In this document: positions 14,212 through 55,158 of the stretch, in pieces
Position numbering within the stretch: the first letter of the stretch is position 1
How the letters are laid out: each line of letters begins with the position of its first letter
Source of the DNA: Candidatus Chazhemtobacterium aquaticus
GTDB lineage: Bacteria > Patescibacteriota > Microgenomatia > UBA1400 > Chazhemtobacteraceae
Length of the DNA stretch: 64,000 nucleotides
Direction of reading: 5' to 3'
NCBI RefSeq assembly: GCF_009936135.1
Contig: NZ_CP047901.1
Coordinates: 152,984-216,983 of the forward strand
Notes under the pieces: generated by a model
Told to the model about the DNA's origin: nothing
The model's input: only the letters and a program-made list of their open reading frames with translations
Database searches by the model: none
Translations under genes and position numbers: made by a program

Positions 14212-14213
14212 TA

Positions 14214-33770: not shown

Positions 33771-34154
33771 ATGAAAAAACTTTACTTTAATCTTCTCACC
33801 CTTATCACTACATCTCTTCTTTTTCCCTCATCAGTTCTCGCTCAAAACCCTGGCGATCTGTTCTGTAACGATAGCTCCGGCATCGCCACTGCTATCGGCT
33901 GTGTCTCACTTGAGCCTGGTGACTTTGCCGGAGACATCCTAAGATTCTCTGTTGGCATTGGTGGTGGTATTGCCCTCCTTCTCCTTCTTTACGGTTTTAC
34001 CCTACTCACCATGTCAGCTGGATCGCCCGACAAAGTCAACGCTGCTAAAGAAATCATCACCTCCGCCATCGGTGGTCTTATTTTTGTCACCATGGCCACT
34101 GTCCTCATGGGTTTTATCGGTATCAACATTCTTAATCTACCCGGCCTTAATTAA
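33771..34154 (+). CDS. VirB2/TrbC-like pilin paralogue P1 (Sec signal peptide plus two hydrophobic helices)
   Basis: Signal peptide ...SSVLA|QNPGD. Mature part has helix 1 (SVGIGGGIALLLLLYGFTLLTM), a polar loop (SAGSPDKVNAAKE), helix 2 (IITSAIGGLIFVTMATVLMGFIGI) and a GINILNLPGLN tail. It is a paralogue of the nine downstream genes. Confidence 0.55.
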   Translation: MKKLYFNLLTLITTSLLFPSSVLAQNPGDLFCNDSSGIATAIGCVSLEPGDFAGDILRFSVGIGGGIALLLLLYGFTLLTMSAGSPDKVNAAKEIITSAIGGLIFVTMATVLMGFIGINILNLPGLN

Positions 34155-34158
34155 TAAA

Positions 34159-35310
34159 ATGCGTACAACAATCTTCCTTTTCATCTTCCTCACAAACCTC
34201 TTTCTTTTCTCCGCTTCCCCCGCTCAAGCCGAATGTTGCGCCGCCAGCAGTTCTACATGCACCGGACCCTTCACCTGCGAAGGAGGCGAACTTATCTGTA
34301 CCACCTCTGCCGAATGCCCTCGCGATCCTTCCTGTTTTGACAGTGGCCAACCTTGCAACTCACTAAAGCCCTGCTGCGAAGAGGGTTTTGCCTGTTCTCC
34401 AACTACTTCAACCTGTCTGTCAACCGCTGCCCCCACCCCAGGCCCAGAACCAAGACCTATTGAGTGTGCACTCGCCCACATCGGCGCCGGCAGGGGAGGC
34501 CAAAACTGGGACGTCACTTACTGTGTCGCCGCCGACACTATTGAGGACCTCCATCGCGTCGCCCAAATCACCGGCATCTGCCGCCGCGGCGCCACCAGCA
34601 TTCTCGGCCAGTATGTCAACAACTGCTCTTGTCATGACGACGATTGGTACGACAACCCGCTCACTGCCGTGGGGGCTCGAGCGGTCTGCTGTGTCGCCGG
34701 ACTAGGTCGCTGCCCGTCAGCTGTTCGCACTACCCAAAGTGTCTCCGGCCAATTCCCCACTCTTTTTGACCCAAACACCAACCGCTACTACACCTGTTTC
34801 ACTCTCCAAGGCATTGATCGAAACGTTGGTATCATGGAAGTTCAGATCAAAGACGCCGATGGGCAACAAGTCTGTAGTGTTCCTCGCGTCACCGTCGCTC
34901 CGGGCAACTACAGCTGGTGGGAATACTTTGACAACACCCTTGAAACCCGCTTCGACACCTCTCTGCCTTTCTACGAAGACCCCACCGAACAAGATCGCTA
35001 CGATCTCACCTGTAGTACTGTCACTGGCAAGCGCGGCATCAACACCGCCATTGGCTGCATTGCCGTCAAACCAGTCGAATTTACTCAAGATTTCCTCACT
35101 GTCAGTATAGGCATTGGTGGTGGTATAGCTCTTTTACTGCTTCTCTATGCCACTGCTCTTATTACCCTTTCTCAAGGCAATCCTCAAAAAATCCAGTCGG
35201 GACAACAAATCATCGCCGCCGTCATCCAAGGCCTCATCCTCATTACCCTCTCAGTAGTTATGCTTAACTTCCTTGGTATTAACATTCTCAACCTCCCTGG
35301 TTTACAATAA
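34159..35310 (+). CDS. pilin-fusion P2: signal peptide, ~290-aa cysteine-rich extracellular domain, C-terminal VirB2-like pilin module
   Basis: The true start is the ATG at 34159 (MRTTIFLFIFLTNLFLFSASPAQA|ECC...). The ORF-track start at 33952 overlaps P1 in another frame. The mature N-domain has ~30 Cys (ECCAASSSTCTGPFTCEGGELICTTSAECPRDPSCF...). The C-terminal ~90 aa (GINTAIGCIAVKPVEF...SIGIGGGIALLLLLYATALITL...GINILNLPGLQ) is near-identical in pattern to P1. Confidence 0.55.
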   Translation: MRTTIFLFIFLTNLFLFSASPAQAECCAASSSTCTGPFTCEGGELICTTSAECPRDPSCFDSGQPCNSLKPCCEEGFACSPTTSTCLSTAAPTPGPEPRPIECALAHIGAGRGGQNWDVTYCVAADTIEDLHRVAQITGICRRGATSILGQYVNNCSCHDDDWYDNPLTAVGARAVCCVAGLGRCPSAVRTTQSVSGQFPTLFDPNTNRYYTCFTLQGIDRNVGIMEVQIKDADGQQVCSVPRVTVAPGNYSWWEYFDNTLETRFDTSLPFYEDPTEQDRYDLTCSTVTGKRGINTAIGCIAVKPVEFTQDFLTVSIGIGGGIALLLLLYATALITLSQGNPQKIQSGQQIIAAVIQGLILITLSVVMLNFLGINILNLPGLQ

Positions 35311-35314
35311 AGCC

Positions 35315-35653
35315 ATGCTACTTGCTCAAGCTGACATTACCAATGTCCCTAACCCTGCCACCAACTTTACCGACCCCGCCACCTGGAATATTGCTGGCCT
35401 TCTTACTGGGGGTACTGGAAGTTTTAATCTTGTCAACCTAGCCTTCTTCCTCGTCGGCTTCGTCTTCTTCTCAAACCTAGTCATCGCCGCCGTCACCTAT
35501 ATTATGTCCGAAGGTTCTCCCGATAACGTCTCCAAAGCCAACTCGCGCTTCACCACTGGATTAATTGGCCTCATCGTTGTCTTTGCCAGCTTTGTTATAG
35601 TCCGTTTAGTTGCTGCTCTTTTCAGTCTTGATGCTAGCGTTCCAATAAACTAG
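35315..35653 (+). CDS. VirB2/TrbC-like pilin paralogue P3
   Basis: Two-helix hairpin ...LVNLAFFLVGFVFFSNLVIAAVTYIMSEGSPDNVSKANSRFTTGLIGLIVVFASFVIVRLVAALF. The start is uncertain, either 35273 or 35315. Confidence 0.45.
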   Translation: MLLAQADITNVPNPATNFTDPATWNIAGLLTGGTGSFNLVNLAFFLVGFVFFSNLVIAAVTYIMSEGSPDNVSKANSRFTTGLIGLIVVFASFVIVRLVAALFSLDASVPIN

Positions 35654-35662
35654 AAACAAAAC

Positions 35663-36061
35663 ATGAAAACAAAAAAACTTCTCATTCTTCCACTAACCAC
35701 TCTCTTCTTTATCTCAAATCCCCATCTTGCCCACGCTCAACTCAATCCCTTTCAAACCAACCTTAAAGACATGTTTCCTGCTGCCCAAAACCTTCCCAAT
35801 CCAGGCAGTGGTGGCGTTCTCTCTACTTTCCTCAACCCAATCGTTAGTTTCGTTCCCATCGTCACTGGCATTCTCTCCTTCATTATTATCATCATTGCCG
35901 GCATCAAATATATAAGTCACGCAGGCAATGCCCAAGAAACCAAAAAAGTCAACGATATGATAACATACGCCTTAGTAGGACTGGCCTTGTCAGCCATCGC
36001 TTTCTGGATCACCCGCCTTCTCTTTATGGTCGGCGCTGGTGACTCTCAAAACTTATTCTAA
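35663..36061 (+). CDS. VirB2/TrbC-like pilin paralogue P4
   Basis: Signal peptide ...NPHLAHA|QLN, followed by two hydrophobic helices separated by the loop HAGNAQETKKVNDM. Confidence 0.5.
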   Translation: MKTKKLLILPLTTLFFISNPHLAHAQLNPFQTNLKDMFPAAQNLPNPGSGGVLSTFLNPIVSFVPIVTGILSFIIIIIAGIKYISHAGNAQETKKVNDMITYALVGLALSAIAFWITRLLFMVGAGDSQNLF

Positions 36062-36063
36062 CC

Positions 36064-36435
36064 ATGAACCTAATCAAACTCCTTATACCCGTCGTTTACG
36101 CTCAAACCGATCCTATTGGCACCATTCAAGCTCCCGCCTCTATTGTTACTGGACCCAGCGATATCTACAAAATATTTAACTCAGTCGTTAATCTCTTAGT
36201 TGTCGTTGCTGGTATCTGGTTTCTTGTCCAAATCATTCTAGCCGGTTTCAACTACATCACCGGTGCTGGTGATAGCAATAAAACTGGCGAAGCCATGAAA
36301 AAAATCACCGACTCTGTCATTGGTCTTGTGGTTGTCGCCGCCGCCTTTATCATCACCTACATTGCTGGTGCTCTCTTTTTTGGCACAGGCTTTAACATCC
36401 TACAACCAACCATAAAAACCATTACTGATTTCTAA
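36064..36435 (+). CDS. VirB2/TrbC-like pilin paralogue P5
   Basis: Short leader MNLIKLLIPVVYA|QTD. Helix 1, then loop GAGDSNKTGEAMKKITDS, then helix 2. Confidence 0.55.
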   Translation: MNLIKLLIPVVYAQTDPIGTIQAPASIVTGPSDIYKIFNSVVNLLVVVAGIWFLVQIILAGFNYITGAGDSNKTGEAMKKITDSVIGLVVVAAAFIITYIAGALFFGTGFNILQPTIKTITDF

Positions 36436-36440
36436 TAATC

Positions 36441-36812
36441 ATGAATCTAGTCAAACTTTTCATCCCCCAAGCTCACGCTGCATTCACCCAAGGAGGTGAT
36501 ATTGTCGGCCCGGGATCTCATCAAAACATCAGCTCCGCTACTGCTGGCACCTCACTTGAAACCCTCATTAGCACTCTTCTTGGTGCACTCACTGCCATCG
36601 CTGGTTTAGGTTTCCTCATCTACTTCGTCATTGGCGGCATCAACTGGATCACCGCTGGTGGTGACCAACAAAAACATCAAAAGGCCACCAAACAGCTTAC
36701 CGACGCCGCCATAGGCCTTATCGTCGTCGTCGTCGCCTACGCTATCGCCGGTATTGTTGGCACAGTCCTTGAAGTTGATATATTAAATCCAGCCAGCCTA
36801 CTCGGCTTATAA
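36441..36812 (+). CDS. VirB2/TrbC-like pilin paralogue P6
   Basis: Leader MNLVKLFIPQAHA|AFT. Conserved core GGINWITAGGDQQKHQKATKQLTDAAIGLIVVVVAYAIAG. Confidence 0.55.
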   Translation: MNLVKLFIPQAHAAFTQGGDIVGPGSHQNISSATAGTSLETLISTLLGALTAIAGLGFLIYFVIGGINWITAGGDQQKHQKATKQLTDAAIGLIVVVVAYAIAGIVGTVLEVDILNPASLLGL

Positions 36813-36819
36813 CCACAAT

Positions 36820-37158
36820 ATGTTTATCAAATCCGCCTACGCTGCCATCTCCAACCCTGCCCTCCAAAATTTTGGTACCGACACTACTGGTGGAGCCGGT
36901 TTAGCTTTCTATGTTTCTCAGCTCTGGAAAACCCTCGTCGTCGTTGGCGGCCTCGCCTTCCTCCTTTACACCATTATTGGCGGAATCAACTGGGTCATTG
37001 CCGGAGGCGACAAAACCAAAGTCGAATCCGCTCAAAAACACCTCACCAACGGACTCACCGGCCTTATCGTTCTTGCCGCTTCTTACGCCATCATGGCCGT
37101 GGTCAGTGATGTTGTTGGTATCAATATTCTTAATATTGATTGGACCTTTGGCAACTAA
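36820..37158 (+). CDS. VirB2/TrbC-like pilin paralogue P7
   Basis: Leader MFIKSAYA|AIS. Core GGINWVIAGGDKTKVESAQKHLTNGLTGLIVLAASYAIMA. Confidence 0.55.
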   Translation: MFIKSAYAAISNPALQNFGTDTTGGAGLAFYVSQLWKTLVVVGGLAFLLYTIIGGINWVIAGGDKTKVESAQKHLTNGLTGLIVLAASYAIMAVVSDVVGINILNIDWTFGN

Positions 37159-37162
37159 AACC

Positions 37163-37477
37163 ATGAATATTATCAAACCCGTCTACGCTCAAACATCAGA
37201 TATTGATAGCCAAGTCACCGGCTTCTTTGCTTATAGCAACGTTGGTGATCTTGTCAGCACCCTCGTCACCACTGCCATTGTCGTTGGTGCCCTTGCCACC
37301 CTTATCTATCTCATCATAGGTGGTATCAACTGGATCACCTCAGCCGGAGATACCCAAAAAGTCGAATCCGCTCAAAAACACCTCACCAACGCCCTTATTG
37401 GCCTAGTAATTCTCGTCGCTGCCTATGCCATTTTCACTGTCGTTAAAGCTTTTCTTGGTATCGGTGATGAAATCTGA
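37163..37477 (+). CDS. VirB2/TrbC-like pilin paralogue P8
   Basis: The true start is the ATG at 37163 (MNIIKPVYA|QTSD). The ORF-track start at 36911 overlaps P7 in another frame. Core GGINWITSAGDTQKVESAQKHLTNALIGLVILVAAYAIF shares an identical ~34-nt stretch with P7. Confidence 0.55.
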   Translation: MNIIKPVYAQTSDIDSQVTGFFAYSNVGDLVSTLVTTAIVVGALATLIYLIIGGINWITSAGDTQKVESAQKHLTNALIGLVILVAAYAIFTVVKAFLGIGDEI

Positions 37478-37543
37478 CCCATTTGACAGGGTCAAACCCA
37501 TCTGAATATAATCAGCTTAACCATTAATTATCTTATCCAAAGC

Positions 37544-37888
37544 ATGAAACTACTTGAATCGCTTATCAAACCAGTACAAGCCCAGTCCGATCTTGGTGTT
37601 CCCGAACCAGATTACGCTGTTAGTAGCATTGGCAACCTTCTCTCTGGTCTAGTTAACGCCGCTATCGTTATCGGCGCTCTCGCCGCCTTCCTCTATCTCA
37701 TCCTTGGTGGCCTTCAATGGATCACCGCCGGTGGAGATAAAACCAAAACCGAAGAAGCTCAGAAAAAAATCACTAATGCCATTATCGGCTTAGTCATTAT
37801 TGCTGCTGCCTATGCCATCATCACCGTCGTTGTCCAATTCCTTGGAATCGGTGAAATCAGCAGTCTTTCTCTTCCTGCCATCGAATAA
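37544..37888 (+). CDS. VirB2/TrbC-like pilin paralogue P9
   Basis: Leader MKLLESLIKPVQA|QSD. Core GGLQWITAGGDKTKTEEAQKKITNAIIGLVIIAAAYAIIT. Confidence 0.55.
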   Translation: MKLLESLIKPVQAQSDLGVPEPDYAVSSIGNLLSGLVNAAIVIGALAAFLYLILGGLQWITAGGDKTKTEEAQKKITNAIIGLVIIAAAYAIITVVVQFLGIGEISSLSLPAIE

Positions 37889-37916
37889 CTTTATTTTCAA
37901 CAAAGTTAATCAAAAG

Positions 37917-37941
37917 AACCTTCCACCAGGAAGGTTTTTTT
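37917..37941 (+). terminator. Rho-independent terminator between pilin genes P9 and P10
   Basis: AACCTTCC-ACCA-GGAAGGTT forms a perfect 8-bp stem with a 4-nt loop, immediately followed by a T7 run, in the 80-bp gap after P9. Confidence 0.65.
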
Positions 37942-37968
37942 GTTATCCCGCCATGCTACAATCTGCTC

Positions 37969-38322
37969 ATGAAGCTAAACTTCACCGCTCATGCCCAAGA
38001 CTGGGCTAGTATTGACCCAAACTGCGTTGCTGGACCCAACAACGATGTTGCCACCATCCAGGGCTTCAAATGTATCATCACTAATCTACTAGCTATCATC
38101 GCCCCCATCATCACCCTCGTCGCCATTGGCATGATCATCTTAGGCGGCGCCAAAATGATAGCAGGCGCAGATAACCCCAAAGCCGTTGACGAAGCCAAAA
38201 AAATCATCACCTTCGCCATCATTGGTGTCATTGGTATTGCTGCTGCCTGGATCATCCTCGTCCTCATTCAAGAATTTACCGGCGCTCCCGTCACCCAGTT
38301 CCAAATCATCACCAATCCTTAG
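37969..38322 (+). CDS. VirB2/TrbC-like pilin paralogue P10 (divergent, Cys-containing)
   Basis: Leader MKLNFTAHA|QDW. Two helices with the loop GGAKMIAGADNPKAVDEAKKII. Two Cys in the mature N-region. Confidence 0.5.
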   Translation: MKLNFTAHAQDWASIDPNCVAGPNNDVATIQGFKCIITNLLAIIAPIITLVAIGMIILGGAKMIAGADNPKAVDEAKKIITFAIIGVIGIAAAWIILVLIQEFTGAPVTQFQIITNP

Positions 38323-38386
38323 CCCCAAACCAGCTCTCACCCCAAGACCCATCTTCACCTCTACCCAAACCAGGCTAAAATGAATT

Positions 38387-41300
38387 ATGCGTTATCTACT
38401 CGCCACCCTCTCCACCCTACTAATCACATCTCTACTCACCAACACAGTTTTTGCCCAAGCTAACCCTGCGGGAACCGTTGGACCTGAAATAGCTGTTCCT
38501 AATGCGGGCACCACTGTCATAGCTGCCCAAAGTTACACTGGTGTTGTCTCTGTGATCAACTACATCGATATTGATGGTCCAGTCGCCTTTAACTCAGTGC
38601 CCATCAAAAATCTTAATGTTCCCACCATTTTAAGAGTCGACATTTCCGCTAACACCTCCAATGAAGACATTGTTGCCTACGCCAACAGTCTTAACAGCGT
38701 TGTCGACACTGAGTTTCCTAATGGTCTGAAAGTTGTTGTCCTAAGCGTCGAAACTAACAATCTCGACTGGTGGTACGGCAGCCCTGGCCAGTCCAATGAT
38801 GAAGCCTCCATCCGCCAAGGCGCGCGAGAATATGCCGAAAAATTCATCCTCTTTGCCCAAACTATTCGGCAAGACCTTCCCCTAGCCCCAGCTCCACCAG
38901 ATCTTTTCAATGGCGTCTTTAACGCCGATCCCTGGATGGACGAATTTACTCGTTCAGGCACATGTCCTTATGTGGATTACAATGTCTCCGATATTTTTGA
39001 GCTAACTCCCACTGTTGGTGGCGGAGCCTATGCTTGGAACACTGTCCACCTCTATCAACAAGAAAAAATGTGTGGCAAGGATGTCATCCATTTTGAAGGC
39101 TGGGGTATTAATCCCAACAACCCTCCGCCAACCGTTAAACAACAAGTTGATTGGTTTCAAAACACTCCTCTCCCTCCTGGCATTGAAACCGCCACCACTC
39201 TCATTCTTCCTCACTGTCCTCCAGAATATGACGCTAGTCTTGACCAAACCGTCAACGGCTTCATAGATTGGTGGTACTACATCAACGGCCGGGTCTTTAC
39301 CTCCGATGGACTTGAAATTGATCCCGAAAGCTGTACCGAAAGAGAAAAACCTGATTGTTACTACGACGGCAATCTCACCCGACCTGGTGGTACCTGCAAA
39401 TCCAGAGTTCCCTACGTCCATAGTGCTCTTGAACAATACGCACCTCAATGTACTCTCACGCCTCAAGGATCACTCTCCCGAACTTCTTGTGGCATTCCAC
39501 CCACCATCACCAATTTGCCCAATGACCCCCAGGAGTACATGGATGTACGACTCCTTGTTAACTACTCACAACTCCAACTTGGTGGTTTAGGACCAGACCA
39601 CACCGCCTGGCGATCTATACCTATCGACAACCTAGCTCGCGGCTACCCTTACAACGCCCTTGCCGATAAACCACTTTCTGTTACAGAAGATACTCCCAAA
39701 GAAGCCTTTCGTACCTGGTGGCGCCTATTAAGCCTCCGTCAACAAATTGAGGCCAAAGCTGAATTCTTCCAACGCTTCCGTATTCAAGACCCTCCCATTT
39801 TTGACTCCGAGTTTGCCTATTCTCAAGGTGGCAGCACTCAGACCTACACCATCAGTGAACTAGAGAACATTCTTCCCGACTGTCTTCGCCTTTTTCCAGT
39901 TCCCAATCGCTGTGGCATAACCGCTGATTCTCTTACCCCTGAACAAACCTACTACAGGCTCCCTGAAACTACTCGTGCCATGTACGACGCCTTTCTCCCT
40001 TTCGACTTCGACAACGTGCGCGGATATCTTGCTCTTCAATACAAAGACCCTACCGATTTCCTATCAGGAGAAAACCGCAATCGAGCCGGGGTCATCGCCG
40101 ACAATCTCCCATATATTCAAGCCCTAGTCGATATCTTAAGCAATAAAGTTAGTGGCATCTTAACCGCCCTAAGCCCTCAATGGCTAAACACCCTAAGAAC
40201 CGACACTCTACCTACCTCAAAAGATTACACCATCGAATACGAAGAAAGTGGCGAAATCAACCTCACCCCCGAATCCCAACAATCCTTCACTCACATGGCA
40301 GCCGCTGCTCGCACTAACTCAGAATATGGAGCAGACTGGGCTTCAGATCTAGCTACCACCTGTTACAATCCCGAAAATCAAGACCCAACTCTTTCTTCAC
40401 CCCTCACCTACCCTCAAAAGCTTGAGGCGCAAGACCCATATCTTCCTCTTCCTGGATCAGAATATACCGACGTTCTTGATCAATCAGTTCTTATCCCCAC
40501 CGAGACTTCAATTTACTATGGCACTCCCACCACCTCTGGATCAGATATCACTTGTACCTACGAAACTGGCAATACTTGCTCTTACGACATCAACACCGGC
40601 TCTTGTCCTCCTCTTTACATCACCAATACCACAGGTGGCATTCCTGGACAAAGAGACCCGGACCTTCCGGTTCGTTCTCAAGTCGGTCGTTCCATCATCA
40701 CCTTTGCCAACCCCCTTATGACAGACATTAGTCGCCTCATCTCCGAACCGTATCTTGGTATGCCTGACACCAGTGGTACATACAACTGGGCCTCCCATAT
40801 GAACCTCTCTCTCTACCATCAAATGCTCACTCGCGACTTTACCCCCCAACCCCAACCTTTTACCGAAATGTTTTCCGAATACACAGAAGATCCCATGTAT
40901 GCCAAACAAGCTCAGTATCAAGCTAGTAAAGACAATGACTCAGCTGTCACCCTCTCTGCCCAAGCCGGTGGAACTGGTGACCAAACAGGACTAGTCGCAC
41001 GCAAAGGTGGCCAACTTGAAATTGATCTCTGCAAACTTCGAAACTTCTGGCTCCGTCCCGATTCTCTCCAAATTGGTGACCCTGAAGATTGCCAACAACT
41101 TGATCAATACATCTCCACACCAAACCAACCCTATGAACTCACCACTCCTGGATCAACCGACTCAGCCTGTCAGGTCAAACAATATCTTTTCGAAAACATC
41201 TGTCCTGGCGGATCATGCTCTTCATACGTCGTCGACACAGCCCTCTCCACCTCTTGTTCTGGTAAAGTTATAAATCCTTACTTCGCCATCACTGTTGCTC

Positions 41301-41737: not shown

Positions 41738-41773
41738 CTTTTTCTTCTCATTATCTTGTTATAATCAACCCAG

Positions 41774-46147: not shown

Positions 46148-46207
46148 CTGGGCAGTAAAAATAACCTATAACTACCTCTAGATTTTAACATACTTACCCT
46201 CAAACAA

Positions 46208-47330: not shown

Positions 47331-47363
47331 TACTAGTTTCATTACCAACCAAGCTTAAGGCAT

Positions 47364-48353: not shown

Positions 48354-48354
48354 C

Positions 48355-49476
48355 ATGATCGACAAAGCCATCAAAGCTACCACCCAAGAACATCTTGATA
48401 TTTACACCATCAAAGAACACTTTGTTATCTTAAAAGACGGTTCAACTGCTCTAGTTCTTCAAATTTCTGCCATAAACTTTGGTCTTCTCTCTGAGGAAGA
48501 ACAAGATGCTCTCATCTTCTCCTACGCCTCACTCCTAAACTCTCTTTCCTTTCCTATCCAAATCATTGTCCGCTCCGTCAAAAAAGATATCACTTCATAC
48601 TTAGAGCTTCTTGATGATCGTCTCGAACAAACCTCTTCTCAAAAGCTCAAAGAGCAGATCGTCAAATACCGCAGCTTCATCAGGAGTCTTGTTAAAAAGA
48701 ACAAAGTTCTTGAAAAAAAATTCTACGTCGTCATCCCTTACAGCTATCTAAGTGTCAATCAAGTCTCCAACAACCTTAATCCACTCGCTAAACCACCCCA
48801 AAAACCACCCCAAGATGTTGACTTTCTCGTTGCCAAATCCAAACAAGAACTCTATCCTCGTCGCGACCACCTCATTCGTCAATTTGCTCGTTTAGGCCTC
48901 CAGTGTCGCCAACTCACCACTCAAGAGCTAGTTACCCTTTTCTACAAAACCTACAACCCCTCCACTCAAGGCATTGAGCAATATCTCACTCTACCCACTG
49001 ACTATGAAACCCCAGCCGTTCAAACCAAAGTCAGAAATCTGTACACCGAAAAAGACACTCCCACTACCCCTATCGCCCCAACACCAACGGCTCCTACTCC
49101 TTCTCCAACCACCCCCACTCAACCCACGACTCCAACTCCACCCATTCCCCCTATTACTCCACACCAAACTACCACCACCCCTCAAAACCAACCTCATTCA
49201 CCTACTCCTCAACCAGTAACTCCACCCAATCCTTCTCCTATCACACCACCAACTCAACCAACCTTTTCTTCTCCATCACCCTCTCCATTACCATCTCCAT
49301 CGCCCACACCCCCGCCAGCCTCACCAACACAAAACCAAACTCTATCCATGCCCACTCCACCATCTACACCCACTAACCCAAACCCCCAAACCTCTCCACC
49401 TCCCGACCCAGCCGACTCAGTTATCCCTCCCTCCCCTCCGGTCACCTCACCGCCTCCACCTTTTCCTTTCTCGTAA
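48355..49476 (+). CDS. VirB4/TrbE N-terminal domain (CagE_TrbE_VirB-like) followed by a Pro/Thr-rich tail; first half of a split VirB4
   Basis: ...LDIYTIKEHFVILKDGSTALVLQISAINFGLLSEEEQDALIFSYASLLNSLSFPIQIIVRS... (the hallmark L.KDGS region of the VirB4 N-domain), then ~160 aa of PTPS low complexity ending at a TAA. Confidence 0.5.
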   Translation: MIDKAIKATTQEHLDIYTIKEHFVILKDGSTALVLQISAINFGLLSEEEQDALIFSYASLLNSLSFPIQIIVRSVKKDITSYLELLDDRLEQTSSQKLKEQIVKYRSFIRSLVKKNKVLEKKFYVVIPYSYLSVNQVSNNLNPLAKPPQKPPQDVDFLVAKSKQELYPRRDHLIRQFARLGLQCRQLTTQELVTLFYKTYNPSTQGIEQYLTLPTDYETPAVQTKVRNLYTEKDTPTTPIAPTPTAPTPSPTTPTQPTTPTPPIPPITPHQTTTTPQNQPHSPTPQPVTPPNPSPITPPTQPTFSSPSPSPLPSPSPTPPPASPTQNQTLSMPTPPSTPTNPNPQTSPPPDPADSVIPPSPPVTSPPPPFPFS

Positions 49477-49538
49477 CACACTTCCTGCCTTGATATACTT
49501 TAACCACTGTCATCAGTATTTAACTTCTTACCCTACAT

Positions 49539-51437
49539 ATGGCTTTCCTGCCCTTTTTAACCAAAAAAACACCCACCCCTAACTCTGCTCCACCACCACC
49601 CAACCTTGCTACCACACCCAAAGCCAGTCCGCTTACTCCACCACTGTCTCAACTAGACAATCAACACACCTCTCCAAATCAACCTCAAAAACCTGGTGGT
49701 GAAGTCAATATCCAAGATATCATCGCTCCTCCTTCAATTGAGGTCGATTTTTCTCACCTAAAAATTGGCTCAACCTACTTCCGTACCATTTTTATTGCCG
49801 GTTACCCCCGCTATGTCTCTGCCAACTGGCTTTCCCCCCTTATCAATTTCGATCACAGTATCGACGTCTCCATGTTCATCTATCCAGTCGAGGTCAAAGG
49901 CACTCTCGAACAACTCCGTCGTCGTATTGCTGAAATGGAGGCCGAGATATCAGCTGACATCGAACGCGGCCGCATCCCTCAAGCCTCAACCCAAGCCCAA
50001 CTAGAAGATGCCAACTCCCTCCAAGAACAACTCGTCAAAGGTATCGAGCGCTTCTTCCAGTTCTCTCTCTATATCACCATTTCTGCAGACTCCAAAAAAG
50101 AACTAGACACCGTCACCAGCCAAGTCCAAAGCCTTCTCGGATCTTTAATCATAGTCAGTAAAATTGCCTCGTATTCTCAAGTTGAAGCCTTCAAATCCAC
50201 CCTTCCATACTGTAAAGACAAGCTTCTTGTTACCCGCAATATGGACACAACCGCTCTCTCCACTACTTTCCCATTTACCAGCTCCGAACTCACCGACAAT
50301 AAAGGCGTCCTTTTCGGAATCAACGAACACAACGAGTCACTCGTCATTTTTGATCGCTTCTCTATGGAAAACGCCAACATGCTCATTCTCGCCACTTCCG
50401 GGGCCGGCAAATCCTACGCCGTCAAAATCGAAATTATGCGCTCCCTCATGTTTGGCACTCATGTCATCATCATCGATCCAGAAAATGAATATGAAATGCT
50501 TTGTAAGGCCGTCGGCGGTAACTACATTGCTTTTAATGTCAGCAGCAATCATAAAATCAACCCCTTCCAACTAGCCGACCCAGACAACAGCTCTGAAGAC
50601 GAGATGGGTTACAAATATCTCTATCTCAACTCTCTGCTCAAAATCATGCTCGGATCTATGTCGGCCGACGAAGACGCCATTTTAAACCAGGCTCTCGTCC
50701 TAGCGTACCAGCAAAAAGGCATCACCCAAGACCCACTCACTCACACTAAAGAACCTCCCCGCATGGAGGACCTTTACAAGGCCTTAATTGGTATGGAGGA
50801 GCCAGAAGCCATTTCTCTATCTCGCCGTCTTGAAAAATACGTTAAAGGGGCCCTTAAAGGCATCTTCGATCAACAAAGCAATGTCTCTATCGACTCACCC
50901 ATCACTGTCTTTACTCTCCGCGAACTCGCCGACGAAATTCGCCCCATTGTCATGTTCATGATCCTGGACTACATCTGGACCCAAATCCGTAAAGAACTCA
51001 AGCGCCGTCTTCTAGTTGTCGACGAAGCCTGGTATCTCATGCGCCACGAAGACTCTGCCAAAGTCCTTCAGGGTTTGGTCAAGCGCGCTCGCAAATACTA
51101 CCTTGGCGTCTCCATCATTTCCCAAAACGCCGATGACTTTTTAGGCTCTCCCTATGGCAAAGCCATTGTCACCAACTCGGCCATTCAGTTTTTAATGAAA
51201 CAATCGCCTGCCGCCATCGACGAAGTTGCCCAAGTCTTCTATCTCTCCCAAGGAGAACGCTCCCTCCTCCTTTCAGCCAATGTCGGAGAAGGCCTCTTCT
51301 TTGCAGGCCAAAACCATATTGCTCTCAGAGTTGTCGGTTCTCCCGATGAACACGCTCTTGCCACCAGTAAACCTCAAGACATCCTCGCCCGCCAACAGCA
51401 GGCCAAGAAGGAACAATCTCTTTCCTCTGCCCTCTAA
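49539..51437 (+). CDS. virB4: VirB4-like T4SS ATPase (central and C-terminal ATPase domains)
   Basis: Begins with a Pro-rich segment, then ...IAPPSIEVDFSHLKIGSTYFRTIFIAGYPRYVSANWLSPLI.... Walker A LILATSGAGKSYAVK. Walker B-like LLVVDEAWYLM (the DEAW characteristic of VirB4/TraC). Confidence 0.7.
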   Translation: MAFLPFLTKKTPTPNSAPPPPNLATTPKASPLTPPLSQLDNQHTSPNQPQKPGGEVNIQDIIAPPSIEVDFSHLKIGSTYFRTIFIAGYPRYVSANWLSPLINFDHSIDVSMFIYPVEVKGTLEQLRRRIAEMEAEISADIERGRIPQASTQAQLEDANSLQEQLVKGIERFFQFSLYITISADSKKELDTVTSQVQSLLGSLIIVSKIASYSQVEAFKSTLPYCKDKLLVTRNMDTTALSTTFPFTSSELTDNKGVLFGINEHNESLVIFDRFSMENANMLILATSGAGKSYAVKIEIMRSLMFGTHVIIIDPENEYEMLCKAVGGNYIAFNVSSNHKINPFQLADPDNSSEDEMGYKYLYLNSLLKIMLGSMSADEDAILNQALVLAYQQKGITQDPLTHTKEPPRMEDLYKALIGMEEPEAISLSRRLEKYVKGALKGIFDQQSNVSIDSPITVFTLRELADEIRPIVMFMILDYIWTQIRKELKRRLLVVDEAWYLMRHEDSAKVLQGLVKRARKYYLGVSIISQNADDFLGSPYGKAIVTNSAIQFLMKQSPAAIDEVAQVFYLSQGERSLLLSANVGEGLFFAGQNHIALRVVGSPDEHALATSKPQDILARQQQAKKEQSLSSAL

Positions 51438-51482
51438 TACCTCGCTGCTGTAAACTGTAACCATCACCAATCCCGATTATCT

Positions 51483-54104
51483 ATGGAAAGCCATAAAATC
51501 CACGAACTTACCCAAGAACTTCGCCTTTTACGGACTCTTCCTCAAAGTCCAGACGTTCTCGACCAAATCAACTCTATCTACGAGCAACTATCTAGCCTTG
51601 GTATCAATCCACAATCCGTTATCACCAATCTTGAACATGAAGCACTTCTACAATCCCATAGCGGCGCTGATGTCGACCTCCTCGCTCTCCTTACTGGCCA
51701 GCAGAATCTTCTCACTGAAAAACTCAATCTCGACAAAAGCAAGCTTACTGATAAACAGATAGCCATCATCGAACTTTTAGTGGAACGCCGCCGTCGCCAA
51801 ATCTTACGCGACAAATTTCAAGCCAAACTTGATCAGCAAAAACAATTAAGGTCCCAGCTTTCTTCTGCTCTATCAGGCAAACCAGAAACTGACCCCAGCC
51901 GCACTAATACACAAGACGCCACCACTCTGATTGAGCGTAAACAGCTCACCACCAACACCACTCTTTCTTCCGATCAAACAAAGCAAGCTGTTGCCCAACT
52001 TTCTTCCGACTTAGTCACTCTCAGCGCCCTCACACCATCTCTACCCCACGCAACCCCCGACTTCGACGAAGAAATCAGTCCTCAACCACTATCCCCCCTT
52101 GGTATTGCTCTCATCACAGAACTTGCTTTCGCTAAAGTCGCCGGACCATCCTACTCATCACCTAGTACAGAACTAGAAACAATCATTGATCAAATCGTTC
52201 GACCAGCTACTGAAACAGATTATCAAATCACCATTACTAATTCAGACCAAGATCAACTCACCTACGACCACACTGGATACGTAGTTGTTCAAGATCAATC
52301 TCTAACCGAAGCAATCACCCAACCAGCTATCCTGCAAACACTCACCACCCTTTCCATACCACCCGAGCACAACCCACTAGTTGCCGACCTAGCCTCATCA
52401 GCTTATCGAGATGCTCCCGAACAAGATCCTCTCATCACCGATGCTATTCCCAAGCACCAAATAAGTAATACATATGCCACTGTCAGTATTCTCACCAATC
52501 AAACACTCTCACGCCAACTCAATCAAGCCACTGGTATCAAATCCAACCAAGCTGAAACTCTTATCATCTCAGAAATAGGCCAACAACCTGTCAGGTCCTT
52601 CCAAGATTTGTCGAGTATTGGCCACTCTATTCATCCCTCACCCTACGCTGCTGCCGCTGCCGCCGTCTCTACCTCTTTCCCTCAACAAAACACTCTCAGT
52701 CCAGAACTAGCCCGGCTTCTAGGTAGAGGTATCTCCTCAGATCAAATAATTGCCACTGCTCAATCAGCTCTTAATAAACGTGGTGCCAAATTCTCCCCCG
52801 ATCAAAGACGCCTTCTCTCCCAACTTGTAAGCCAGGCTCGTTCTGTCAGTAAACCTTTAGAGACAGATTTGCTCGCCTCAGCCAAACCTCGACTCTTTGG
52901 CGCCAGGGTTCCGCGCTACATCGAACGCTTTAATTCATATCTTAACGGCTCTAGAAACAAATTCCTGTCTGCTTTCTCAGGTAGATATGCTCGTTTTTTC
53001 CAAGCCGCTACCAATCCTATGGGTTTCGCCTCCAGTCAACTTGGAACCTACGCTGGCAAGCGCATCGCCAGCCACCTAGCCGGCAAACTTAGCTCCACCG
53101 CTCTTAAAGAAGGTTTTGGCATCATGGCCAATCAAGGCTTTAAACAGGGTATCAACTTCTTAAGCCAAGAAGCGGCCAAAAAAGTTGGTGCCAAGTTACT
53201 CTCAAACGCCGCCGTTCACGCCCTCGCTCAATCATTAAACGTCATTCCAGGACTAGGTATCATCGTCGACATTGCCCTCACTCTGGCTATGGCTGCTATC
53301 GATAAAATCAAAAACTCTCTTCACCAACTAGCCATCTCTCTCTATGGCAGTAAAATCGACGCTAAAGAAGCTGCTGCCGGAGGAGCCGCCTTTATTGGTG
53401 GAGCGATTGTCTCAGGAATCGCCCTTGTTGGTCTCGGTGCCCAAGCAGCTCTAGCTGCCACCTTTACCGCTGCTGCCTCCGCTTTCGCAACTCTCTTTTT
53501 TGCTGCTGCTGCTGCCATCATTATTTACTTAAGTGCTTTTAACATAGCTCCCATTATTTCCACCATCGCTCAACTAGACTCAGGCCTGGGTACTTCCGGT
53601 TATGGTTCCAATCTCAATGTTGACTACGGCGAATACACTGGCCCAGTCATCCCAGGATGCCATCCAATCTGGCCAACCAATACTGGAGAAATTATTCAAG
53701 GCCCGTATGGATCCTTCTCACACAAAACCATCGAGGCCATCGATGTCGATGCTCAAACCGGCGAACCAGTTTACTCAATCTCAGACGGGGAAGTTATTGC
53801 TGCTGGCTGGGCTATCTCAGAACCTGTTTACGGCAACTGGGTTATCATTCAGTCTACCATTCAAGGTAGAACCTATCGCGTTTTATACGGCCACTTATCA
53901 ACTTGGAATGTAGAAACTGGACAGCAAGTATCTACCGGCGACCCTATTGGAGCTGTAGGTGCTACCAGCTCTGTTGGACTTTATCAAAACTCCCACCTAC
54001 ATCTTGAGTATCGCGGGCTAGTCTATAACGAATGTCCGGCAGCTGGTCAACAAATTCGCAATGGTTGCTATGGCTTTGCATCCTGTGGAAGCATAGCTTG
54101 GTAA
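51483..54104 (+). CDS. T4SS-associated cell-wall hydrolase candidate: N-terminal coiled region, hydrophobic Ala/Gly-rich membrane segment, C-terminal M23 (LytM-type) metallopeptidase domain
   Basis: C-terminal ...GPYGSFSHKTIEAIDVD...YGNWVIIQS...LYGHLS...GDPIGAVGATS...NSHLHLEYR has the M23 H..D and HLHxE motifs. A long hydrophobic stretch sits at ~aa 610-690. Directly downstream of VirB4. Confidence 0.55.
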   Translation: MESHKIHELTQELRLLRTLPQSPDVLDQINSIYEQLSSLGINPQSVITNLEHEALLQSHSGADVDLLALLTGQQNLLTEKLNLDKSKLTDKQIAIIELLVERRRRQILRDKFQAKLDQQKQLRSQLSSALSGKPETDPSRTNTQDATTLIERKQLTTNTTLSSDQTKQAVAQLSSDLVTLSALTPSLPHATPDFDEEISPQPLSPLGIALITELAFAKVAGPSYSSPSTELETIIDQIVRPATETDYQITITNSDQDQLTYDHTGYVVVQDQSLTEAITQPAILQTLTTLSIPPEHNPLVADLASSAYRDAPEQDPLITDAIPKHQISNTYATVSILTNQTLSRQLNQATGIKSNQAETLIISEIGQQPVRSFQDLSSIGHSIHPSPYAAAAAAVSTSFPQQNTLSPELARLLGRGISSDQIIATAQSALNKRGAKFSPDQRRLLSQLVSQARSVSKPLETDLLASAKPRLFGARVPRYIERFNSYLNGSRNKFLSAFSGRYARFFQAATNPMGFASSQLGTYAGKRIASHLAGKLSSTALKEGFGIMANQGFKQGINFLSQEAAKKVGAKLLSNAAVHALAQSLNVIPGLGIIVDIALTLAMAAIDKIKNSLHQLAISLYGSKIDAKEAAAGGAAFIGGAIVSGIALVGLGAQAALAATFTAAASAFATLFFAAAAAIIIYLSAFNIAPIISTIAQLDSGLGTSGYGSNLNVDYGEYTGPVIPGCHPIWPTNTGEIIQGPYGSFSHKTIEAIDVDAQTGEPVYSISDGEVIAAGWAISEPVYGNWVIIQSTIQGRTYRVLYGHLSTWNVETGQQVSTGDPIGAVGATSSVGLYQNSHLHLEYRGLVYNECPAAGQQIRNGCYGFASCGSIAW

Positions 54105-54120
54105 AATTATTACAAACTAC

Positions 54121-55158
54121 ATGAACAACATCACCAGCTCTCTTCACCAAACCATCTTAGTACTTCGTAAGACCAAGTTTGTCATCCTTGCTGGTATAGT
54201 CTTAGTTCTCCTTATTCTCGTTATTATTCAACAACAATCTCGCCAGACACTAACCCAACCACAACCCACAACACCACCACCTTCCCCCAATCTACCCACT
54301 CCACCACCAGACCGAGACTTGAAAATTGTCTGGAATATAACTCAACCCTCGCTTCCCCAAAGTCTTCCTTACTACCAATCAAACCCTGTAACCTTCAACA
54401 CTCAGTATACCGACAACTTCGTCTCTTACCTCGGCTTTGCTCCAAATCATCTTCTTTCTACAAATCCGCACACTCGTCTCTGGGTAAACGATCAATTATC
54501 ACTCAATATAAATCTTCCTTACGGACCACTAACTTTCATCAACAGCTCACTTCCAGACTCAACCTCACCACCATCTCTCGATTTCCTACTTCAATCAGCC
54601 ACACAGCATCTAAACAACATCTTCCCTGCTCTCCAAATCAATCCGGACCTCAAAAATATTAAATATCTAGCCACAGACCCAAATACTACTGCTTTTAAAG
54701 AGACTACTTCAGACCAAGCTGAATATACCTTAATTGGCTTCTATCAAACCATCGAGTCACTTCCAACCATCGCACCGTCAAGTACTACCACCCCCATCAC
54801 CATCGTTCTAAACAATTATGGGCAGATTCAACAACTGGAAGTTATATCAATCATCAATCAACATCAAAAAATATCTGGCAATATATCACTCCTCTCTTTT
54901 GAAGAACTTATGCAAATAGCACCCCAACAAGCTATTAAAATATCCTCCGACAAAATAGACACAGAAACCAATCTAACCAAAGATAAAGATCAAACACTTA
55001 CAGTTAACCAATTAGACCTAGTCTATCTATCCATCTCTAATGACGACATTCTCCAACCTGTTTTCCGTCTCACTGGTACACTTTCCACTTCCACCACATC
55101 CTTCCCGGCTGTCTTTATCGTTCCTGCTTTCGCCAACTCAACAAATCCTCAAAACTAA
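54121..55158 (+). CDS. bitopic membrane protein (N-terminal TM, PT-rich linker, extracytoplasmic domain); possible VirB8-like T4SS component
   Basis: TM FVILAGIVLVLLILVII, then PPPSPNLPTPPP, then a ~270-aa domain. The VirB8-like call rests only on size, topology and position. Confidence 0.3.
   Translation: MNNITSSLHQTILVLRKTKFVILAGIVLVLLILVIIQQQSRQTLTQPQPTTPPPSPNLPTPPPDRDLKIVWNITQPSLPQSLPYYQSNPVTFNTQYTDNFVSYLGFAPNHLLSTNPHTRLWVNDQLSLNINLPYGPLTFINSSLPDSTSPPSLDFLLQSATQHLNNIFPALQINPDLKNIKYLATDPNTTAFKETTSDQAEYTLIGFYQTIESLPTIAPSSTTTPITIVLNNYGQIQQLEVISIINQHQKISGNISLLSFEELMQIAPQQAIKISSDKIDTETNLTKDKDQTLTVNQLDLVYLSISNDDILQPVFRLTGTLSTSTTSFPAVFIVPAFANSTNPQN

Follow-up and report, generated by a model that had tools for sequence, protein, structure and literature searches.

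A probable resident type IV secretion system of the Patescibacteria lineage beside dnaN and dnaA in a Microgenomatia chromosome

Introduction

Patescibacteria (CPR) account for a large part of the diversity of bacteria, and they live on the surface of, or otherwise attached to, other microbes. Theirs is the only type IV secretion system (T4SS) known to be essential to its bearer: in Candidatus Southlakia epibionticum ML1 (Saccharimonadia), epibiotic growth requires the T4SS encoded by SEML1_0004-0019 (Wang et al. 2023, PMC10633639). The T4SSs of Patescibacteria have also been surveyed (Quinonero-Coronel et al. 2025, PMC12102498); in the sections of the survey drawn on here, arrays of VirB2 copies are proposed to give surface variation, and VirD4-like homologues lie far from virB4 in most genomes.

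The locus described here is of a kind already published, with its pilin array, absence of a relaxase and proximity to dnaA (PMC10633639, PMC12102498, PMC12857230); such a cluster is found beside dnaN/dnaA in most ultrasmall Patescibacteria. As this kind was described in 2023-2025, the locus is a good example and not a discovery, and the current picture of Patescibacteria T4SSs is unchanged by it. It is a clean, complete example from Microgenomatia, with ten pilins against published arrays of up to eleven. The additions made here are small: evidence for a VirB6 fold in Microgenomatia, and an antisense gene that is conserved in position, hypervariable in sequence and equipped with a basic C-terminal tail.

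Results

Layout and chromosomal setting

The window, a stretch of 64 kb analysed as a whole, contains two tightly packed gene blocks on the + strand. Block 1 consists of ten VirB2-like pilins, a 1116-aa secreted protein and a VirB6-like protein; block 2 consists of PrgI/VirB3, TrsD, VirB4, an M23 membrane protein and a bitopic protein. Between them lie an antisense gene for a predicted cytoplasmic protein of 842 aa and, in the intergenic spacer, a 1.1-kb IS481-family element. All 19 ORFs of the locus are intact. Every gene listed in a preliminary description of this DNA was found in its place on the + strand; the TrsD-like gene and the antisense gene had been overlooked. The cluster abuts the replication genes, as had been noted, with dnaN ending 2 nt past the last cluster gene.

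55161-58010, - strand: dnaN (55161-56270) and dnaA (56592-58010); ORFs, with Pfam calls on the near-identical genes of L001.

For comparison, 80 related loci were fetched from species genomes, mostly labelled as Microgenomates lineages, in which VirB4 is 57-83% identical. The order prgI, trsD, virB4, large transmembrane (TM) protein, bitopic protein, dnaN, dnaA is conserved, and adjacency to dnaN/dnaA is kept in most of the 80; this recurrence at such VirB4 divergence argues for vertical inheritance. The locus shares the extreme strand composition of its genome, a GC skew published for this order (PMC7143001), and the sole exception is the transposase gene. Housekeeping genes stand on both flanks (rpoD, dnaG, tmRNA, dnaN, dnaA, rnpA, yidC). 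Pfam and NCBIfam scans of the ORFs in the 64-kb window found no VirD4 or other coupling protein (T4CP), relaxase, VirB11 or VirB9/10, in agreement with the preliminary description; a VirD4-like gene may lie elsewhere in the genome.

Taken as a whole, the locus is best explained, with a probability of about 0.82, as the resident chromosomal T4SS of a Microgenomatia (Patescibacteria/CPR) bacterium, belonging to a Patescibacteria-specific lineage derived from monoderm MPF_FATA conjugation machinery. It shares with the Patescibacteria clade the similarity of VirB4, the adjacency of TrsD and PrgI, an array of PF18895 pilins, and the absence of relaxase and coupling protein (over 64 kb) together with proximity to dnaA/dnaN. 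The earlier view of a minimised Gram-positive/CPR-type T4SS is supported by the CD1110-type VirB4, its Patescibacteria homologues and a layout in agreement with that of published Patescibacteria T4SSs.

The pilin array

33771-34154, + strand: pilin paralogue 1, 127 aa; PF18895 E 1.2e-7, above the gathering score (GA); two hydrophobic helices.
34159-35310, + strand: pilin paralogue 2, 383 aa; PF18895 E 9e-4 at residues 308-373, below GA.
35273-35653, + strand: pilin paralogue 3; TTG start, alternative ATG at 35315; PF18895 E 1.8e-5, 25.2 bits, just below GA 26.6.
35663-36061, + strand: pilin paralogue 4, 132 aa; PF18895 E 5.1e-7; PF04956 TrbC sub-threshold, E 0.001.
36064-36435, + strand: pilin paralogue 5, 123 aa; PF18895 E 2.4e-9.
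36441-36812, + strand: pilin paralogue 6, 123 aa; PF18895 E 6.1e-14.
36820-37158, + strand: pilin paralogue 7, 112 aa; PF18895 E 1.9e-5, 25.1 bits.
37163-37477, + strand: pilin paralogue 8, 104 aa; PF18895 E 1.1e-9.
37544-37888, + strand: pilin paralogue 9, 114 aa; PF18895 E 1.1e-11.
37969-38322, + strand: pilin paralogue 10, 117 aa; PF18895 E 4.5e-9.

The ten consecutive small ORFs all match the Pfam family PF18895 T4SS_pilin (E 6e-14 to 9e-4), seven of them above the gathering score, which bears out the ten pilin paralogues first proposed. Their designation as VirB2/TrbC-like holds for the two-helix pilin form and fails for the family, which is PF18895 instead of PF04956 TrbC/VirB2: no pilin exceeds the threshold of the latter, and two of the ten match below it (E 0.001 and 0.031; 19.7 and 14.9 bits against GA 27.9). 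Every pilin begins with a short leader (9-25 aa) whose end reads A-x-A or AQ, and all share a pair of hydrophobic helices and a conserved loop. In alignment the paralogues are divergent, at about 25-30% identity, with 52% between paralogue 1 and the pilin domain of paralogue 2. Gene starts were corrected to 34159 for pilin 2, to 37163 for pilin 8 and to TTG 35273 or ATG 35315 for pilin 3.

Paralogue 2 is the predicted fusion of a pilin to an extra domain: a signal peptide and a Cys-rich N-terminal domain of ~280 aa (24 Cys) precede the C-terminal pilin domain. The region of the N-terminal domain (34163-35080) has no DNA-level alignment to the relative L005. Pilin fusions recur: the orthologue in L005 has 334 aa, and L062 has an extended pilin of 307 aa.

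The secreted protein and the VirB6-like protein

38387-41737, + strand: secreted Cys-rich protein, 1116 aa, no assigned family; an N-terminal hydrophobic segment only; 26 Cys.
41774-43564, + strand: VirB6-like polytopic membrane protein, 596 aa; identified by its hydrophobic segments and fold comparison.

Sequence searches of the 1116-, 596-, 842- and 345-aa proteins against Pfam, NCBIfam, PADLOC and the PDB gave nothing usable. The N-terminal segment of the 1116-aa protein is signal-like, as its description as a secreted protein implied, and the protein has no sequence match in Pfam, NCBIfam or the PDB. In related loci, the gene immediately upstream of the VirB6-like one encodes a homologue (22-36% identity), and the protein is a candidate pilus-tip or adhesin component.

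The 596-aa protein has 10 hydrophobic segments in all, an N-terminal signal-like one followed by about nine others. Its best three Foldseek matches are all TrwI, with modest scores (E 0.04; TM-score about 0.35 when normalised by target length), and it combines a polytopic topology with a VirB6-like helical fold. No match to the VirB6/TrbL profiles (PF04610 or equivalents) was found in Pfam or NCBIfam at E<=0.1, and a profile of 78 VirB6-like homologues found no VirB6 among PDB sequences. The assignment as VirB6/TrbL-like is therefore supported in topology and, through a predicted model with modest structural scores, in fold, and is not matched by sequence profiles.

PrgI, a split VirB4 and the wall-associated genes

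47364-48353, + strand: PrgI/VirB3-like protein, 329 aa, with a Pro/Thr-rich linker and a C-terminal domain; PF12666 E 1.6e-8 at residues 7-89; two TM segments.
48355-49476, + strand: TrsD-like protein, 373 aa; homologue of the VirB4 N-terminal domain with a proline-rich tail (18% Pro in the whole protein).
49539-51437, + strand: VirB4 ATPase, 632 aa, MPF_FATA-like; conju_CD1110 362.5 bits, above the cut-off of 325.
51483-54104, + strand: membrane-anchored protein, 873 aa, with a C-terminal M23 peptidase domain; PF01551 E 9.9e-21 at residues 751-844.
54121-55158, + strand: bitopic protein, 345 aa, last gene of the cluster; single N-terminal TM segment at residues 11-35.

The prgI, trsD and virB4 genes are separated by gaps of 1 and 62 nt. 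The TrsD-like protein matches the NCBIfam models VirB4_plasma (positions 104-234, E 2.4e-11) and TrsD NF041427 (E 4.7e-8), and a 99% identical 373-aa protein at the equivalent position in L001 has a precomputed match to PF26593 TraC-like. Together, TrsD and VirB4 tile a full-length Firmicutes VirB4, the first matching positions 26-137 and the second positions 185-733 of the 752 in conju_CD1110. The relation is visible via family profiles only: direct BLAST of TrsD against the VirB4 N-terminus shows no similarity.

VirB4 matches P-loop_TraG (2.5e-30) and CagE_TrbE_VirB (7.7e-5) in Pfam, and its best solved relative is the Gram-positive VirB4 of Thermoanaerobacter (PDB 4ag5, E 2.6e-45). Residues 286-293 form the Walker A motif, ATSGAGKS, and DEAW stands at 495. 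Thousands of Patescibacteria proteins form its closest homologues; the best 120 listed are 67-99% identical (67-80% minus two near-identical entries) and mostly come from Patescibacteria/Microgenomates records, which account for nearly all of those that bear a name.

The 873-aa protein has four TM segments at 581-690, and a large protein with 3-7 TM segments follows VirB4 in most related loci. Its M23 domain carries the metal motif HLH at 838 and a first motif H-x6-D or H-x8-D of non-canonical spacing compared with HxxxD; by its domain match the protein is a candidate wall hydrolase. The single N-terminal segment of the 345-aa protein is shared by 42 of 51 positional equivalents, and a VirB8-like role is possible. 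Its AlphaFold model is poor because a word-index homologue search found only 5 close relatives; the profile of a 21-sequence family assembled from related loci matched nothing in the PDB or Pfam. The PrgI/VirB3-like protein (by its PF12666 match), the ATPase with its Walker A and DEAW Walker B motifs, the M23-peptidase fusion (PF01551) and the bitopic topology of the last protein had all been named beforehand and stand.

The antisense gene and the insertion sequence

43619-46147, - strand: soluble, highly charged protein, 842 aa, with a basic C-terminal tail; no TM segment and no family match.
46216-47322, - strand: IS481-family insertion sequence, 1107 bp, with its transposase at 46224-47282; rve/rve_3 domains.

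The antisense gene is lineage-specific, conserved in position and separate from the insertion sequence (IS). Its product is homologous to that of the gene in the corresponding position of L004 (33% over 474 aa, E 1e-67), and likewise of L005, and has only 6 representative clusters among 1.84 billion proteins. As the gene is present without the IS in both relatives, a passenger of the IS is ruled out. In 38 of 40 loci, the VirB6-like gene and prgI are separated by an antisense ORF of 530-1130 aa. These proteins contain no TM segment and no Pfam domain (Pfam run on ten) and fall into many clusters, which neither BLAST nor hhalign links (hhalign probability <= 1.4%); an iterated HMM search reached close relatives only. 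Their C-terminal 30 residues have a mean net charge of +2.7, compared with -0.07 in 215 control proteins of the same loci (p = 4e-10, for sequences that are not independent), and that of the 842-aa protein is +6. A rather doubtful reading of these sequences would make the large, fast-evolving product of the gene a so far unrecognised component of Microgenomatia T4SSs, either a dedicated translocated substrate (effector) or a cytoplasmic adaptor replacing the missing coupling protein. On that reading it may correspond to SEML1_0011, the essential 999-aa protein of Southlakia.

The best NCBIfam match of the transposase is IS481 (E 4.3e-48, 164 bits, below the curated 224). The element has imperfect terminal inverted repeats of ~27 bp and is flanked by a 5-bp direct repeat, CTGGG, at 46211-46215 and 47323-47327; L005 has the empty site with a single CTGGG. 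An IS481 insertion before prgI had been described, and the element is indeed there, with an extent of only 1107 bp that leaves the 842-aa gene outside. The GC skew of the transposase gene is foreign to the genome, and the insertion looks recent because this composition has not been ameliorated.

Discussion

The components suggest how the system could work. PrgI, TrsD and the VirB4 ATPase would form a motor at the cytoplasmic membrane, with TrsD supplying the N-terminal domain missing from VirB4, and the VirB6-like protein would serve as membrane platform. Leader-processed pilins would be pulled from the membrane by VirB4 and polymerised on this platform, while the M23 domain would open the peptidoglycan locally. 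Many divergent pilins could provide surface variation, and the Cys-rich domain of pilin 2 and the 1116-aa protein may act as host-binding modules presented at or on the filament.

Since the window contains no coupling protein or relaxase, the most likely role is contact with a host cell, or exchange of protein or other macromolecules with it, instead of conjugation, in agreement with the proposal for the essential T4SS of Southlakia epibionticum (PMC10633639). Here, as in the literature, pilus biogenesis rather than conjugation is inferred. VirB4, PrgI and TrsD are nevertheless homologous to conjugation proteins of Firmicutes elements and a transposase is present, so that an ordinary conjugative element (an ICE or integrated plasmid) with its relaxase and coupling protein just beyond the window has to be weighed. 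It is extremely improbable given the recurrence of the same order by dnaN/dnaA in most of the 80 species-level genomes, the base composition of the host genome, the housekeeping flanks, and a window that holds no integrase or replication module, att-like boundary, relaxase or T4CP within its 64 kb; according to the survey, moreover, relaxases occur in only 103 of 3,035 genomes (PMC12102498).

An importer that works inwards on DNA or nutrients, like archaeal Ced or Helicobacter ComB, and feeds nucleotides to an auxotrophic cell would also dispense with relaxase and T4CP. Patescibacteria are known to lack nucleotide synthesis, and the window includes a ComFC-like gene at 27152-27805 as well as a gene for a secreted SNase nuclease at 5707-6993. 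The match of VirB4 to the CedB DNA-import family (E 1.2e-18) points the same way, but is far weaker than those to conjugative VirB4. In Southlakia comEC is dispensable and the T4SS essential, so that essentiality does not act via ComEC-dependent natural transformation (PMC12857230); import is unlikely on balance. A T4SS that is inactivated or decaying, its prgI-virB4 operon severed from the promoter by the IS481 insertion, is less likely again. The IS interrupts a 109-bp spacer, continuous in L005, at 41 bp upstream of the prgI start and may have displaced the block-2 promoter, and a consensus scan around it found no sigma-70-like promoter, non-canonical ones being outside the reach of such a scan. 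IS481-family elements can, however, supply outward promoters, the insertion looks recent, and besides the intact ORFs of the whole locus, block 2 retains 97.5% DNA identity over 7.6 kb with the IS-free relative L005, with zero frameshifts.

As a probable resident T4SS of Microgenomatia, the locus provides three handles: structure-level support for a VirB6 component that escapes sequence profiles in this class, a VirB4 visibly split into TrsD and ATPase, and a conserved antisense gene as a testable candidate substrate or adaptor.

Comparison with known systems

The Southlakia T4SS and this locus are both origin-proximal chromosomal clusters with a PF18895 pilin array and no recognisable coupling protein or relaxase. 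They share the order VirB6-like protein, large protein, PrgI, TrsD-size protein, VirB4, large protein (~1100-aa), wall hydrolase, small exported proteins and recF/dnaN/dnaA. The six pilins of Southlakia are on the opposite strand, whereas the ten found here lie upstream and are co-oriented; in Southlakia a separate gene encodes the hydrolase, a lysozyme, whereas here an M23 domain is fused to a membrane protein; and the large Southlakia protein between VirB6 and PrgI (999 aa, essential) is co-oriented, whereas here the one in that position is antisense. No equivalent of the NTF2-like SEML1_0012 was identified here, and the 1116-aa secreted protein, the pilin with a Cys-rich domain and the IS are extra. 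Essentiality has been tested in Southlakia only.

The clade delineated in the survey, in the sections used here (PMC12102498), likewise has a VirB4 of MPF_FATA ancestry with TrsD and PrgI beside virB4, arrays of 2-11 VirB2 genes (most frequent in Microgenomatia and Saccharimonadia) and M23-type hydrolases; it has no relaxase, and its neighbours are dnaA, dnaN and rnpA. VirB6 is scarce in Microgenomatia in those sections and there is hardly any VirB8, whereas here a VirB6-like fold has structural support. The position-conserved antisense gene and the bitopic last gene are not singled out there.

With MPF_FATA systems (C. difficile CTn2/CD1110 type, pGO1 Trs, pCF10 Prg) the locus shares a VirB4 above the CD1110 cut-off, TrsD and PrgI homologues, a wall hydrolase (here a candidate) and the lack of outer-membrane core proteins. 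Unlike this locus, those systems have a relaxase and coupling protein, lack VirB2 pilins and reside on mobile elements, and the CD1110-type VirB4 is a single polypeptide, whereas this locus encodes the N-terminal part separately. The likeness to the Gram-negative VirB/Trw systems (R388, Agrobacterium) lies in two-helix pilins of VirB2 type, the VirB6 fold, VirB3 and VirB4; in contrast to them, the locus has no VirB7/9/10 core, VirB11 or VirD4, its pilin leaders are short, and in sequence the likeness to TrbC and VirB6 stays under the family thresholds. Tandem divergent VirB2 copies are also a feature of the Bartonella, Anaplasma and Rickettsia T4SSs, which translocate effectors from diderm cells and have VirD4, whereas here the presumed host is another microbe and one of the paralogues carries an extra domain.

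Genomic setting and gene order

On the + strand, a co-oriented gene cluster at 33771-55158 can be followed by ORF listing and translation of the window. It comprises two closely packed blocks, with intergenic gaps of −38 to 80 nt, and two genes of opposite orientation between them:

33771-43564, + strand: block 1, with ten small genes, the 1116-aa gene and the 596-aa gene
43619-46147, − strand: 842-aa gene between blocks 1 and 2
46224-47282, − strand: 352-aa transposase gene between blocks 1 and 2
47364-55158, + strand: block 2, with five genes of 329, 373, 632, 873 and 345 aa

A reverse-strand dnaN ORF lies 2 nt past the 345-aa gene, followed by dnaA and, beyond it, rnpA-yidD-yidC-jag. The upstream side holds a SpoIID-domain protein, tmRNA, tRNAs, dnaG and rpoD, so that the flanking genes on both sides make the setting a chromosomal, housekeeping one. 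The preliminary description of a co-oriented block next to dnaN/dnaA is confirmed, and its reading as a type IV secretion system (T4SS) is supported in substance; the genes it listed are present, but its inventory left out a TrsD-like gene and the 842-aa antisense gene.

Between dnaG and the T4SS region are the tmRNA gene and seven genes for tRNAs, of which four form a cluster on the + strand (20727-20798, 25225-25663, 26269-26353, 27040-27122 and 27859-28248). Divergent from the first pilin gene and immediately upstream of it lies 31941-33695 (−). Its 584-aa product is secreted, has an N-terminal coiled coil and contains a SpoIID (lytic transglycosylase) domain; the same neighbour is found in the related locus L005, and the protein could serve the T4SS as a second factor for wall remodelling. 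Further afield, a 428-aa protein with staphylococcal-nuclease and bacterial Ig-like domains (5707-6993, −) and a ComFC-like protein with a double zinc ribbon and a phosphoribosyltransferase domain (27152-27805, −) would both fit an auxotroph that scavenges or takes up DNA.

About 8,000 VirB4 homologues were scored, the best 120 of which are 67-99% identical; named entries among these 120 belong to Patescibacteria, Collierbacteria, Woesebacteria and the Microgenomates group. With each species represented by a single genome, a scan yielded 80 related loci, in which prgI-trsD-virB4 is nearly universal, with a VirB6-like gene 2-8 kb upstream and, in most, opposite-strand dnaN and dnaA coming next. 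Synteny is conserved across these loci.

Core components

PF12666 (E 1.6e-8) marks the 329-aa protein as PrgI/VirB3-like. The 632-aa protein is a VirB4 (P-loop_TraG, E 2.5e-30; NCBIfam conju_CD1110, 362.5 bits against a cut-off of 325); among PDB entries it is closest to Thermoanaerobacter VirB4 (4ag5, E 2.6e-45), and it has ATSGAGKS as Walker A and DEAW within Walker B. In the 873-aa protein, four membrane segments are combined with an M23 domain at the C-terminus (E 9.9e-21). Profile searches thus uphold the PrgI/VirB3-like protein, the VirB4-like ATPase and the M23-peptidase fusion as they were originally called.

Among NCBIfam models, the 373-aa ORF (48355-49476) hits TrsD (E 4.7e-8) and, in several VirB4 families, the N-terminal region. 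On the CD1110 VirB4 model (752 positions) it spans 26-137, and the 632-aa VirB4 spans 185-733; the two adjacent genes jointly tile one Firmicutes VirB4, which can be read as a split VirB4. This tiling agrees with a remark in the survey by Quinonero-Coronel et al. (2025, PMC12102498) that TrsD, the commonest partner of Patescibacteria VirB4, is similar to the VirB4 N-terminus.

The 596-aa protein, described earlier as a VirB6/TrbL-like polytopic protein, is matched by none of the sequence profiles searched. An AlphaFold model built on a 78-sequence homologue alignment has a mean pLDDT of 74.9, exceeding 90 in most membrane helices; in a Foldseek search against 350,542 PDB chains, TrwI/VirB6 chains of the R388 T4SS take the first three ranks (E 0.043-0.14, probability up to 0.92, TM by target 0.33-0.37). 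Two methods concur, with modest scores, and the protein is here called VirB6-like in fold and not a member of the VirB6 sequence family. It adds a little to the 2025 survey, in which VirB6 was scarce among Microgenomatia (PMC12102498).

For the 345-aa protein, put forward earlier as a VirB8-like candidate, the evidence is positional: of 51 related loci, 42 have as last + strand gene before dnaN one for a bitopic protein of 140-370 aa. The window's 345-aa protein, itself bitopic, yielded only five close relatives in a first homologue search, and a poor model (pLDDT 43.6). It falls within a BLAST-linked family of 19 such last-gene proteins; a 21-sequence profile found no match in PDB or Pfam. 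Across the related loci the last gene belongs to at least five unrelated sequence families of the same topology. In the related locus L001, an unrelated 201-aa bitopic gene (6262-6867) stands where the window has 54121-55158, and the M23 protein is 914 aa instead of 873 aa; the VirB4 proteins are 98-99% identical, so the distal end of the cluster has been exchanged between very close strains.

Strand composition

The + strand of the window is 30.1% C and 14.1% G (GC skew −0.36; AT skew near 0). Third-codon-position GC skew runs from −0.6 to −0.95 in + strand genes and from +0.5 to +0.86 in most minus-strand genes, and within the window there is no sign change across dnaA/rnpA. The most extreme skew, −0.78, is that of a 620-aa ORF (29085-30947, −) rich in Val, Glu and Gly, with a hydrophobic stretch mid-protein, for which Pfam, NCBIfam and PADLOC searches returned zero matches. 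Related loci fall into two groups, one with a mild skew that flips sign at dnaA and one with a strong skew and no flip; extreme disparity is also seen in L004, L010, L016, L033, L041 and L053. The bias is imprinted on the proteins: + strand genes encode long Pro/Thr/Ser/Gln-rich linkers (e.g. 47364-49476; Pro content 18% in TrsD and 14% in PrgI), and minus-strand products are rich in Gly, Glu and Arg (11.6%, 11.3% and 10% in the 842-aa protein, 43619-46147).

Such skew is already known for the order UBA1400. The Microgenomates genome Ch65, at 29.83% C and 14.97% G, is almost identical in composition to the window, which on this ground belongs to that lineage or close to it; a like disparity occurs in Collierbacteria and Beckwithbacteria of that order, and near-unidirectional replication has been put forward as the explanation (Kadnikov et al. 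2020, PMC7143001).

Pilins and the 1116-aa protein

All ten small proteins match PF18895 (T4SS_pilin; E 6e-14 to 9e-4), seven of them above the Pfam gathering score. The ten pilins of the preliminary description therefore stand, although the VirB2/TrbC family to which it likened them (PF04956) gives sub-threshold matches only. Common to them are a short leader with A-x-A or AQ at its end, a pair of hydrophobic helices and a conserved loop; pairwise identities are ~25-30% (52% for pilins 1 and 2). In pilin 2 (34159-35310) the pilin domain is preceded by a domain of ~280 aa that contains 24 cysteines. At the DNA level this region (34163-35080) does not align to L005 2524-3293, in a locus otherwise 90-97% identical, which marks the domain, as judged from this comparison, as a strain-level hypervariable module. 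Together with the divergence of the ten pilins, it suggests surface variation. A 307-aa pilin in the related locus L062 (19822-20769) has an N-terminal extension unrelated to that of pilin 2.

Pilin arrays lie upstream of the VirB6-like gene in every related locus whose 10-kb flank extends far enough. In L005, public gene calls at 2500-6600 and 14100-16400 omit most pilin genes, prgI and trsD and place short minus-strand ORFs there instead; a six-frame HMM search recovered all ten pilins. It would seem that the strand bias confuses gene callers, and surveys of this lineage may for that reason undercount pilins.

The gene for the 1116-aa protein immediately precedes the VirB6-like gene. In VirB-type operons virB5 comes before virB6, and by this comparison the protein is a candidate for a tip or binding role.

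Insertion sequence and antisense gene

The IS481 insertion reported ahead of prgI is borne out. The element (46216-47322, 1107 bp) is intergenic, situated 41 bp upstream of prgI; its transposase has IS481 as best NCBIfam match, its terminal inverted repeats, ~27 bp long, are imperfect, and a 5-bp sequence, CTGGG, is duplicated. L005 aligns continuously across the site with one CTGGG copy. The insertion is recent, because the transposase gene alone has a strand composition unlike the genome's. The element aside, block 2 is 97.5% identical to L005 over 7.6 kb, with all ORFs intact.

The 842-aa gene is not part of the element: homologues are alike in position and orientation in the IS-free loci L004 (33% identity over 474 aa, E 1e-67) and L005. 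Of the 40 related loci in which VirB6-like and PrgI hits occur together, 38 have an opposite-strand ORF of 530-1130 aa directly between these genes. Membrane segments and signal peptides were found in none of the encoded proteins, all of which are highly charged and net acidic overall, and none of ten tested has a Pfam domain. They split into many BLAST clusters, among which hhalign gave no significant pairing; in a set of 1.84 billion proteins, the window's family accounts for only six representative clusters. Net charge over the C-terminal 30 residues is positive in 34 of 42 proteins (mean +2.7; window protein +6), against a mean of −0.07 in 215 soluble control proteins from the same loci (Mann-Whitney p = 4e-10, on non-independent sequences). 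A positively charged C-terminal tail is a recognised VirB/D4 substrate signal, which makes testable the idea that the antisense protein is a candidate T4SS substrate or adaptor.

Proposed mechanism and alternatives

A mechanism can be proposed by analogy with other T4SS, in which the roles of the homologous parts are established, and on the basis of published work (PMC10633639, PMC12102498, PMC12857230). PrgI would tether VirB4 to the membrane, and TrsD would provide the N-terminal domain missing from VirB4. VirB4 would then pull processed pilins out of the membrane and onto the VirB6-like platform, and the M23 domain would open the wall. Binding modules at the tip or surface may be provided by the secreted, Cys-rich 1116-aa protein and by the additional domain of pilin 2.

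Conjugation is unlikely as the function of the locus. Gene order across the relatives points to a chromosomal system that is vertically inherited, not to a mobile element; in the 2025 survey, relaxases occur in only 103 of 3,035 genomes and T4CP homologues are mostly distant from virB4 (PMC12102498). That the apparatus works as an import system, as in Ced or ComB, has a low probability.

Comparison with published systems

The T4SS of Southlakia epibionticum is origin-proximal, has no recognisable coupling protein or relaxase, has an essential pilin array and is itself essential for epibiotic growth (Wang et al. 2023, PMC10633639). Its gene order, very close to that of the window, runs VirB6-like, NTF2-like, 999-aa essential, PrgI, 294-aa, VirB4, 1114-aa, lysozyme, small exported proteins and recF-dnaN-dnaA (PMC10633639). 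The essential 999-aa protein occupies the equivalent position to the 842-aa protein, but its gene is co-oriented whereas that of the window is antisense.

The survey of 3,035 genomes places Patescibacteria VirB4 as a monophyletic clade nested in MPF_FATA, and reports TrsD, PrgI and hydrolases with M23 domains, arrays of 2-11 VirB2 genes, notably in Microgenomatia, and enrichment of dnaA, dnaN and rnpA beside virB4 (PMC12102498); a 2025 review restates this picture (PMC12857230). All headline features of the locus, and its kind, are already published, and its novelty is therefore low. What it adds to these systems is structural support for VirB6 in Microgenomatia, the split-VirB4 reading, a dated IS insertion and, as a lead, the conserved antisense gene.
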